From: an uncultured Bacilli bacterium
Lineage (GTDB): Bacteria; Bacillota_I; Bacilli_A; RF39; UBA660
DNA: 64,000 bases
Assembly (NCBI GenBank): GCA_944332715.1
Contig: CALVKN010000001.1
Span: 13,415 to 77,414 of the forward strand
Direction: 5' to 3'
The translations under genes were made by a program, and so were the position numbers. This document shows, in pieces, positions 14,731 through 15,058 of this stretch (its first letter is position 1; each line of letters starts with the position of its first letter). Under the pieces are notes generated by a model, which was not told the DNA's origin, did no database searches, and saw only the letters and a program-made list of their open reading frames with translations.

Positions 14731-14747
14731 TGTCGAATTTTGTCAGA
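14731..14747 (+). promoter_or_regulatory. tandem Spo0A-box-like motifs TGTCGAA-ttt-TGTCAGA, 9 nt upstream of the -35
   Basis: A perfect TGTCGAA plus a 5/7 second box at 10-bp phasing. The same arrangement is conserved in copies B and C. Confidence 0.45.
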
Positions 14748-14884
14748 CGATTTTCCTTGCCTTTATCATATTTTAACTCTAGAATAGATAACCGTTACCC
14801 ATAGTGGGAGCGTCTACTTTGCTTTGCTGGATTCCAGCTATCAGGGGGAACCTTGGGAGTCAGGTTTGAAAGGAAGGTGAAGTC

Positions 14885-14965
14885 ATGAACAATAATGAAC
14901 TTTATTTAGTAATGATAGTAATTATACTCGGTTTAATAGCTGATATAAAAGACAAAAGACGCTAA
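14885..14965 (+). CDS. 26-aa hydrophobic peptide with a basic C-terminus (putative type I toxin)
   Basis: SD GGAAGGTGA lies 4 nt before the ATG. MNNNELYLVMIVIILGLIADIKDKRR. Conserved in copies B and C. Confidence 0.55.
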   Translation: MNNNELYLVMIVIILGLIADIKDKRR

Positions 14966-15016
14966 AATAGCGTCTACAACTAGTAGATGCTACCCACCAC
15001 TATGGGTAACACTTAC
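14948..15016 (-). ncRNA. predicted ~65-70-nt antisense sRNA (putative antitoxin); ends are approximate
   Basis: Driven by the conserved extended -10 promoter. It ends at hairpin AGACGCT-ATTTT-AGCGTCT plus TTTTGTCTTTT (minus-strand reading). It is fully complementary to the last codons and the 3' region of the peptide mRNA. Confidence 0.5.
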
Positions 15017-15058
15017 ATATATAATATACCAAATTACATAAATTTATTCAAGTGTTTT

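Follow-up and report, generated by a model that had tools for sequence, protein, structure and literature searches.

The window analyzed here, a 64-kb stretch of contig CALVKN010000001.1 from an uncultured Bacilli bacterium, carries three copies of a conserved ~320-bp intergenic module at 14731 through 15051 (+), 22461 through 22783 (−), and 36311 through 36641 (+). Each copy is predicted to produce an mRNA for a small hydrophobic peptide and, from the other strand, a convergent cis-antisense RNA overlapping the 3′ end of that mRNA. This layout, already proposed in an earlier interpretation of the letters alone (herein the sequence-only reading), is conserved across ~75 related copies. We interpret the module as a type I toxin–antitoxin (TA)-like mechanism, a new family within a known kind, with a probability of roughly 0.65; the name “type I TA” is applied by analogy only. 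This reading is the best supported; the chief competing one is a small membrane protein that is not toxic and whose expression the antisense RNA controls. Among the RNA features, the strongest support is for a helix joining the two ends of the peptide mRNA, which had previously been overlooked.

Module architecture

The three copies (A, B, and C) that had been proposed in the window were all recovered by sequence comparison and nhmmer, and an nhmmer search with the family profile found no further copies there. Copy B is inverted relative to copies A and C, an orientation absent from the earlier description. A 14-mer of the helix arm occurs seven times in the window against 0.19 occurrences expected by chance. 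Every element that had been listed for copy A was found in place, including the sigma-A-like promoter, the transcript start motif, the Shine-Dalgarno (SD) sequence 4 nt before the ATG at 14885, the 26-codon open reading frame (ORF), the extended −10 promoter on the minus strand, and the hairpin and U-run that end the antisense RNA.

Copy A
14731–14737, +, TGTCGAA box, upstream edge of the conserved unit
14757–14785, +, peptide-mRNA promoter, TTGCCT-17-TAGAAT
14794–14817, +, 5′ arm of the terminal helix, GTTACCCATAGTGGGAGCGTCTAC, beginning at about +1 of the mRNA; start motif GTTACCCATAGTGG at 14794
14872–14880, +, purine-rich SD, GGAAGGTGA, predicted to be mostly base-paired
14885–14965, +, 26-codon ORF, MNNNELYLVMIVIILGLIADIKDKRR, subtype I
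14957–14975, no strand assigned, hairpin AGACGCT-AAAAT-AGCGTCT overlapping the last codons and stop, followed by a U-run on the minus strand; antisense terminator (AGACGCTATTTTAGCGTCT then TTTGTCTTTT, 14975–14947, −)
14983–15010, +, 3′ arm of the terminal helix; its complement is the 5′ hairpin of the antisense RNA
14947–15016, −, predicted ~70-nt antisense RNA (5′ hairpin, spacer, terminator hairpin, U-run), with ends deduced from promoter and terminator
15023–15051, −, antisense promoter TTGAAT-17-TGgTATATT with extended −10

Copy B
22461–22783, −, whole module, inverted
22783–22777, −, TGTCGAA; 22757–22752, −35; 22734–22729, −10; 22720–22697, 5′ arm
22627–22547, −, ORF MNDNEFYLVMIVITLGLIADIKEKRR; 22555–22537, hairpin; 22529–22502, 3′ arm
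22461–22489, +, antisense promoter; ~22496–22564, antisense RNA

Copy C
36311–36641, +, whole module
36311–36317, +, TGTCGAA; 36337–36365, promoter; 36374–36397, 5′ arm
36471–36554, +, ORF MNDKIFCQVIIILVLVLFSNRGQAKRR, subtype II; 36546–36564, hairpin; 36573–36600, 3′ arm
36641–36613, −, antisense promoter; ~36606–36538, antisense RNA

A helix joins the ends of the peptide mRNA

Each unit in the window is bracketed by a 24- to 28-nt inverted repeat (14794 through 14817 and 14983 through 15010 in copy A) that the sequence-only reading did not report. The RNA of copy A from 14792 through 15012 (221 nt) folds at −80.4 kcal/mol with a z-score of −7.0. A terminal duplex between the first 30 and the last 42 nt is predicted for 44 of 44 unique modules; its mean energy is −32.6 kcal/mol, and in a test on 11 copies shuffling gave about −14 ± 3 kcal/mol. 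The helix is 20 to 28 bp long and covaries: pairing extends to 95.4% of cells when 36 arm pairs are aligned, compared with 25 to 43% when the arms are slid against each other, and none of 500 shuffles reached the observed covariation score. RNAalifold recovered both this helix and the terminator hairpin independently. The arms differ between subtypes and change in concert, as the following pairs illustrate.

5′ CCCATAGTGG, 3′ CCACTATGGG
5′ CCCATTATTGG, 3′ CCAATATGGG
5′ TCTGTATTTGG, 3′ CCTGAATACAGG
5′ CCCAAAGTGG, 3′ CCACTTTGGG

Formal pair counting was limited to the outer 14 pairs, because whole-module MAFFT alignment misplaces the inner helix between subtypes; the inner part was assessed per sequence by duplex energies. 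Of 1,102 pairs in the helix, 144 are G·U, and every intermediate pair state is a U·G or a G·U, with no A·C among them. In 39 of 44 modules the plus-strand duplex is stronger than its minus-strand mirror image (mean difference 6.3 kcal/mol; −37.5 versus −15.2 kcal/mol in one example). These pairing biases show selection on a plus-strand RNA that spans both arms. In relatives of the window copies, the peptide promoter reads TTGCAA-17-TATAAT. A constant ~8 nt separates the −10 element from the 5′ arm, so the helix would begin at about the first transcribed base.

The SD sequence is also predicted to be sequestered. Its mean unpaired probability is 0.20, a value that holds with either arm of the helix removed or kept, and many subtypes carry an obvious CU-rich anti-SD (CTCCTCC) upstream. 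T1TAdb recognizes type I toxin mRNAs by SD/anti-SD stems and long-distance interactions between the 5′ and 3′ ends (PMC8594479); structure of the kind described there as blocking premature translation, namely SD pairing and a terminal helix, is predicted here.

The antisense RNA

A convergent antisense RNA of ~65 to 75 nt is predicted from a promoter that points inward ~6 nt outside the 3′ arm; all copies have the −35 and an extended −10 (TGnTATAyT). Complementarity of the predicted RNA to the peptide mRNA is complete and takes in the last codons, the terminator hairpin, and the 3′ arm, which bears out the complementarity to the last codons and 3′ region that had been claimed. Computationally, the module has the antisense gene expected of a type I TA locus. 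The antisense target of copies A and B includes an identical stretch of 30 nt. A 5′ hairpin is predicted in every subtype. Where the trimming rule left the sequence whole, a spacer, a GC-rich terminator hairpin, and a U-run come next; in several subtypes that rule cut off the second hairpin. Compensatory changes in the terminator stem (GACGC/GCGTC, GGCGC/GCGCC, and GGCAC/GTGCC) maintain its pairing, copy C being among the sequences with such changes. In 34 of 34 unique sequences, the 5′ hairpin is stronger on the antisense strand than in the mRNA reading of the same DNA (−13.0 versus −9.2 kcal/mol). As this bias is opposite to that of the terminal helix, the two together argue that both strands are transcribed into structured RNAs.

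The peptide gene

An intact ORF of 23 to 29 codons occupies the same position behind a purine-rich SD in at least 42 of 49 full modules. The 28 distinct peptides fall into ~7 subtypes, listed below, which have a polar N terminus, a hydrophobic core, and usually a basic tail, and share the motif M-(N/S)-(D/E)-x-x-(F/Y)-x-Q-(V/L)-(V/I)-I-I.

Subtype I, MNNNELYLVMIVIILGLIADIKDKRR, window copies A and B
Subtype II, MNDKIFCQVIIILVLVLFSNRGQAKRR, window copy C
Subtype III, MNEDIFLQVIIILVIIIYGNQKKDANK
Subtype IV, MSEKLFFQLVIIIVIIIFGSNNDKDATRK
Subtype V, MSNNIFYQLVIILLFGIIYQNIEKRHRK
Subtype VI, MIRILKSYIMIIINIKIKFSINKKDATRK
Subtype VII, MKEEKMLLLVIIIILLLIIIKLI, 23 to 25 aa

ORF length changes among modules are in-frame only. 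Nucleotide differences at codon positions 1, 2, and 3 number 6,468, 4,386, and 7,591, respectively (a bias of 3 > 1 > 2), and 39% of single-base codon differences are synonymous. We estimate the chance of a 27-codon open frame in such AT-rich DNA at ~1 in 10; that it persists in subtypes differing at about half of their bases is therefore no accident. Judged by these substitution patterns, the ORF codes for protein. Over 13 aa, the best hydropathy window scores 2.6 to 3.6 (1.85 for subtype VI), consistent with the small (<60 aa) hydrophobic protein on a dedicated mRNA that characterizes type I TA loci. Computationally, then, the module combines three features of such loci: a small hydrophobic ORF, an antisense RNA gene, and a locked mRNA.

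Relatives and distribution

Searches of related genomes with DNA-pattern scans and nhmmer recovered ~75 further copies in some 15 metagenome-assembled genome (MAG) species of uncultured gut Bacilli, with 81 nhmmer matches in 60 related loci (numbered L below). Exact-pattern scans with the window-type sequence yielded just three MAG loci, all near-identical (uncultured Bacilli and Ca. Onthocola stercoravium). The diversity of the family was recovered only by anchoring on the antisense-promoter region, which biases the view of that element; this anchor gave 9 true loci in metagenomes and 47 stretches from ~13 species in MAGs. Hosts among the MAGs include the uncultured “Tenericutes” UMGS910, several BRZ Bacilli bins, Ca. 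Onthocola stercorigallinarum, and Ca. Coprovivens. A draft genome holds 2 to ~10 copies, often in tandem; nhmmer resolved arrays of two or three modules in L019, L029, L046, L049, and L005/L025. Since the ThiI closest to that of the window is only 86% identical (BRZ_EV bin81), the window's own genome is apparently not among the searched representatives.

A far more diverged module at ~5770 through 6092 (−) of L084 has arms AAGCGTTAGGACTAATGTC and GACATTAG..TCCTAACGCTT, a 37-aa (or shorter) ORF containing MKRVPAIVILLRIKIKTLIFSINV, and an inward TGnTATAAT promoter. It was missed by nhmmer, and the family is therefore wider than the copies counted. Scans of phage and plasmid collections (blastn) and of viral contigs gave no match to the module.

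Genomic setting and decay

The neighbors of the modules are housekeeping genes. The downstream gene is convergent in 29 of 44 modules, including all three window copies, and co-directional in 15 of 44. One orthologous locus carries subtype VI, IV, or IIIb in different species. In the syntenic order thiI–65-aa ORF–ackA, the module is present in the window and in L063 and absent from L064, and no target-site duplication was seen when the filled and empty thiI–ackA sites were compared. The 65-aa ORF itself (MYNTNYYYKGYDV...; 14467 through 14664, −) lies between ackA and copy A and has conserved counterparts in L063 and L064; it belongs to no Pfam family and probably represents a genuine small gene.

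In several copies the putative toxin ORF has been destroyed while the antisense unit is intact. The lesions include deletion of the anti-SD, SD, and start codon (L015 and L052), larger internal deletions (L050, L056, and L016b), a frameshift (L029), and a premature stop (L035). Recurrent inactivation of the ORF with retention of the antisense gene is an indirect hint that the peptide may be toxic and neutralized by the antisense RNA.

In three MAGs, B-like copies lie directly downstream of a retroelement cassette (L003, 3735 through 5351, −; L001, 2440 through 4056; L002, 2652 through 3994). The cassette comprises a 112-aa ORF, a 368-aa reverse transcriptase (Pfam RVT_1, 6e-20; motifs IGNMTSQ and YMDD), and a 75-aa ORF; we take the two motifs to be reminiscent of reverse transcriptases of diversity-generating retroelements.

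A repeated box upstream of the peptide promoter

In most modules, (T)GTCGAA occurs as two or three direct repeats with a 10-nt period that abut the near-consensus TTGCAA-17-TATAAT promoter; the window copies retain one intact and one degenerate repeat, and their −10 is TAGAAT. Elsewhere in ~1 Mb of related sequence, the tandem box occurs upstream of a gene for a UvrD-like helicase (Pfam UvrD-helicase, 9e-50), in the form GTCGAA-N4-GTCGAA(CG) next to a −35. It lies directly upstream of the helicase gene in L101 (~3347, −) and L109 (~2839, −). A module stands between box and helicase gene in three loci, in distant form in L084 (~6092, −) and in degenerate form in L094 (~6445, −) and L120 (~5785, −). 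In L043, L048, and L013 a helicase homolog directly follows the module. Because the box is common to the peptide promoter and the helicase gene, it looks like a shared operator; that a peptide promoter and a DNA-repair gene may be linked in this way, hinting at stress control, is a lead rather than a result.

The box may be the operator of a stress or damage regulator. Its geometry (7-mer, N3, 7-mer) recalls that of CtsR boxes; a motif search of the collected related loci found no CtsR-like protein. The commonest neighbor, present at 10 of 49 modules, is an XRE-family helix-turn-helix protein with a transmembrane segment (~214 aa; HTH_3, 1e-20), located downstream and convergent in L004, L017, L026, L033, L044, and L054, and upstream and co-directional in L015, L037, L052, and L055. 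It is a candidate regulator, although the link may only reflect conserved synteny. At 8189 through 8300 (+) of L011, a triple GTCGAA box and promoter serve only a hairpin of ~55 nt that carries a U-run and lies upstream of miaB; the unit probably represents either the remains of a module or an independent small RNA.

Comparison with known families

The proposal that the family is unrecognized held up in every collection searched. Nothing relevant to the module passed the Rfam gathering threshold across the full window, and permissive searching of 14650 through 15110 returned only chance-level matches (E ≥ 0.58); tRNA, tmRNA, and riboswitch identities were excluded by ARAGORN and Rfam. Together with the phage, plasmid, and viral searches, no described RNA or mobile-element family was found that matches the module. 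Eleven peptides searched against Pfam-A and NCBIfam, which include models for known type I toxins, matched no family at E ≤ 10 except MgtU (E = 0.02) and TatA (E = 0.14), both sub-threshold, queries of ~27 aa limiting the sensitivity of such searches. The same 11 peptides matched no profile of TxpA/RatA, BsrG/SR4, BsrE, BsrH, YonT, SprG, SprA1/PepA1, Fst, Ldr, Hok, TisB, or Ibs, in line with the statement in the sequence-only reading that the peptide resembles none of Fst, TxpA, BsrG, and PepA1. In a collection of 5.8 billion proteins, no protein shared words with the 46-aa in-frame extended ORF of copy C. Section 5 of the T1TAdb paper describes no comparable family (PMC8594479).

The closest analogs in layout are txpA/RatA and bsrG/SR4 of Bacillus subtilis, which likewise pair a hydrophobic-peptide mRNA with a convergent cis-antisense RNA overlapping at the 3′ ends. 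In these systems the two RNAs are expected to form a duplex and to decay in an RNase III-dependent manner. The modules differ from them in having shorter peptides (23 to 29 versus 38 to 59 aa) without a match to their NCBIfam or Pfam models, in not being prophage-borne, and in an antisense target that includes one strand of a ~25-bp helix between the 5′ and 3′ ends. With hok/Sok and aapA1/IsoA1 they have in common an mRNA closed by end pairing and a sequestered SD, features that T1TAdb treats as diagnostic (PMC8594479). The SD of those mRNAs, however, is blocked by the long-distance interaction itself, and their antisense RNAs bind the 5′ or translation-initiation region; in the present module it is the 3′ arm that the antisense RNA covers, and SD occlusion is predicted to be local and helix-independent. 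Their hosts are Proteobacteria and Campylobacterota rather than Bacilli. Like tisB/istR-1, symE/symR, and dinQ/agrB, the module has an operator-like element at the peptide promoter (the tandem GTCGAA), which is a direct repeat and not a LexA palindrome, and for which a connection to DNA damage is only a lead. Fst/RNAII (par) resembles it in that the toxin is short and hydrophobic, the convergent transcripts have a terminator region in common, and a 5′ structure sequesters the SD; par is characterized by direct-repeat pairing sites at the 5′ end, and the peptides here match neither Fst_toxin nor the Fst-type NCBIfam models. Judged by sequence, the module is not a member of the txpA, bsrG, hok, aapA1, tisB, symE, or dinQ families.

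Weighing the interpretations

Several observations count against a type I TA module. The copies sit at stable core-genome intergenic sites and are borne by neither phages nor plasmids. The core of subtype VI contains charged residues yet is conserved in several genomes, a poor fit to a pure membrane poison. Predicted SD sequestration is independent of the terminal helix, so the role that we assign to the helix is a guess. No intrinsic terminator is predicted on the plus strand after the 3′ arm in copies A through C; with a co-directional downstream gene in 15 of 44 modules, read-through is possible. Finally, most copies were found through the antisense-promoter anchor, and the invariance of that promoter is partly due to ascertainment; the −35 and the TG and hexamer of the extended −10 are also kept in copies that nhmmer discovered outside the anchor search.

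Some of these points would suit a non-toxic small membrane protein of the KdpF, AcrZ, or MgtS type, tuned by a cis-antisense RNA and free of any addiction or toxin function. Peptides conserved at stable chromosomal sites between housekeeping genes, weak sub-threshold matches that are confined to small membrane proteins (MgtU and TatA), and the retention of subtype VI in several genomes despite its charged substitutions all point that way. Such a protein would not readily explain 2 to 10 diverged paralogs per small genome, tandem arrays included, nor the repeated pseudogenization of the ORF with the antisense gene kept; presence is variable at a syntenic site, there is no consistent partner gene or operon, and the elaborate locking of the mRNA is typical of toxin genes. 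We consider this explanation unlikely. It is less probable again that the module is a structured non-coding RNA or cis-regulatory leader in which the small ORF is incidental or only a leader peptide. That view can draw on the strong helix and fold (z = −7), the missing plus-strand terminator, and the copies directly upstream of co-directional genes (UvrD-like helicase and miaA): 12 modules have such a gene within 150 nt, and in L084, L043, L048, and L013 the module intervenes between the box-promoter and the helicase gene. Although no plus-strand terminator is predicted, the ratio of 29 convergent to 15 co-directional downstream genes makes a general 5′-leader role unlikely, all three window copies facing a convergent gene; the ORF is moreover conserved at the protein level, with in-frame indels and codon-position bias, and Rfam holds no matching family.

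An exported membrane-active peptide, such as a leaderless bacteriocin or a phenol-soluble modulin (PSM)-like cytolysin aimed at competitors or host cells, with the antisense RNA as a brake on expression, appears slightly more improbable than a leader. The many paralogs, the size and charge pattern typical of small cationic or hydrophobic peptides, and the amphipathic, cationic character of subtype VI would fit; the uniformly hydrophobic, non-amphipathic cores of subtypes I through V would not, and neither recurrent transporter, immunity, or modification genes nearby nor a bacteriocin family in Pfam or NCBIfam was found. The perfect 14-nt inverted repeat at both ends of a multi-copy ~220-bp segment is also what a miniature inverted-repeat transposable element (MITE) would display, its terminal repeats being protein-binding DNA sites. 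Here the case is poorest, and we rejected it as highly improbable: G·U intermediates in place of A·C and far better pairing on one strand rule out a DNA-level terminal repeat, conservation runs 60 nt and 40 nt past the repeats, the same orthologous locus is occupied across species, and both a target-site duplication and matches in phage, plasmid, or viral collections are lacking.

Proposed mechanism and significance

In the type I TA-like mechanism that we favor, a sigma-A-type promoter would produce a plus-strand mRNA of at least ~220 nt encoding a 23- to 29-aa single-helix membrane peptide. The first ~25 nt of this mRNA pair with its last ~25 nt, as the covariation shows, and the resulting helix probably protects both ends from exonucleases and compacts the RNA. 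A CU-rich or complementary segment upstream is predicted to trap the SD in a local stem, which would make translation intrinsically low. From the extended −10 promoter just outside the 3′ arm, a ~70-nt antisense RNA would be made that may nucleate on the exposed spacer and the complementary terminator loops and then invade the terminal helix. The resulting ~65- to 70-bp duplex would be cut by RNase III or otherwise destabilized, and no peptide would therefore be made while the antisense RNA is present. By analogy, a drop in antisense RNA or induction of the box-controlled promoter would let the peptide enter the membrane and arrest growth; toxicity of the peptide and its neutralization by the antisense RNA are both inferred from this analogy.

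A broader hypothesis, tentative and well short of even odds, is that these modules form a lineage-wide, inducible type I toxin family among uncultured gut Bacilli with reduced genomes (the Mycoplasma-like CAG and Onthocola group), with promoters wired to the tandem-GTCGAA operator of a UvrD-like repair helicase and an antitoxin RNA that invades and unlocks the ~25-bp helix joining the toxin mRNA ends. If so, membrane toxins would belong to a damage or stress regulon not governed by LexA. Type I families continue to be discovered regularly; we know of no description of control by unlocking a 5′–3′ helix in 3′-overlapping systems. The family is large, wholly unannotated, and confined to abundant but uncultured gut Bacilli. 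Its ~75 natural variants, with unusually clear covariation on both strands, are a resource for studying toxin-mRNA locking and antisense opening, and the operator shared with a DNA helicase gene offers a testable way into stress regulation in organisms without genetics. If the peptides are not toxic, the modules would still be a clean new example of paired evolution of sense and antisense RNA structure.

Other features of the window

A glmS ribozyme (Rfam, 69 bits) lies at 61074 through 61220 (+), just upstream of a 610-aa ORF (61217 through 63049), and tRNA-Arg genes are located at 22858 through 22934 (+) and 42721 through 42796 (−). A 300-nt direct repeat with 84% identity (16933 through 17232 and 18479 through 18778) falls inside the minus-strand ORFs 16267 through 17334 and 18479 through 18880, whose paralogous N-terminal regions carry it. 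At 52694 through 53017, ~19 tandem 12-nt units (63 to 91% identity) overlap ORFs of both strands and may encode a repetitive protein segment.

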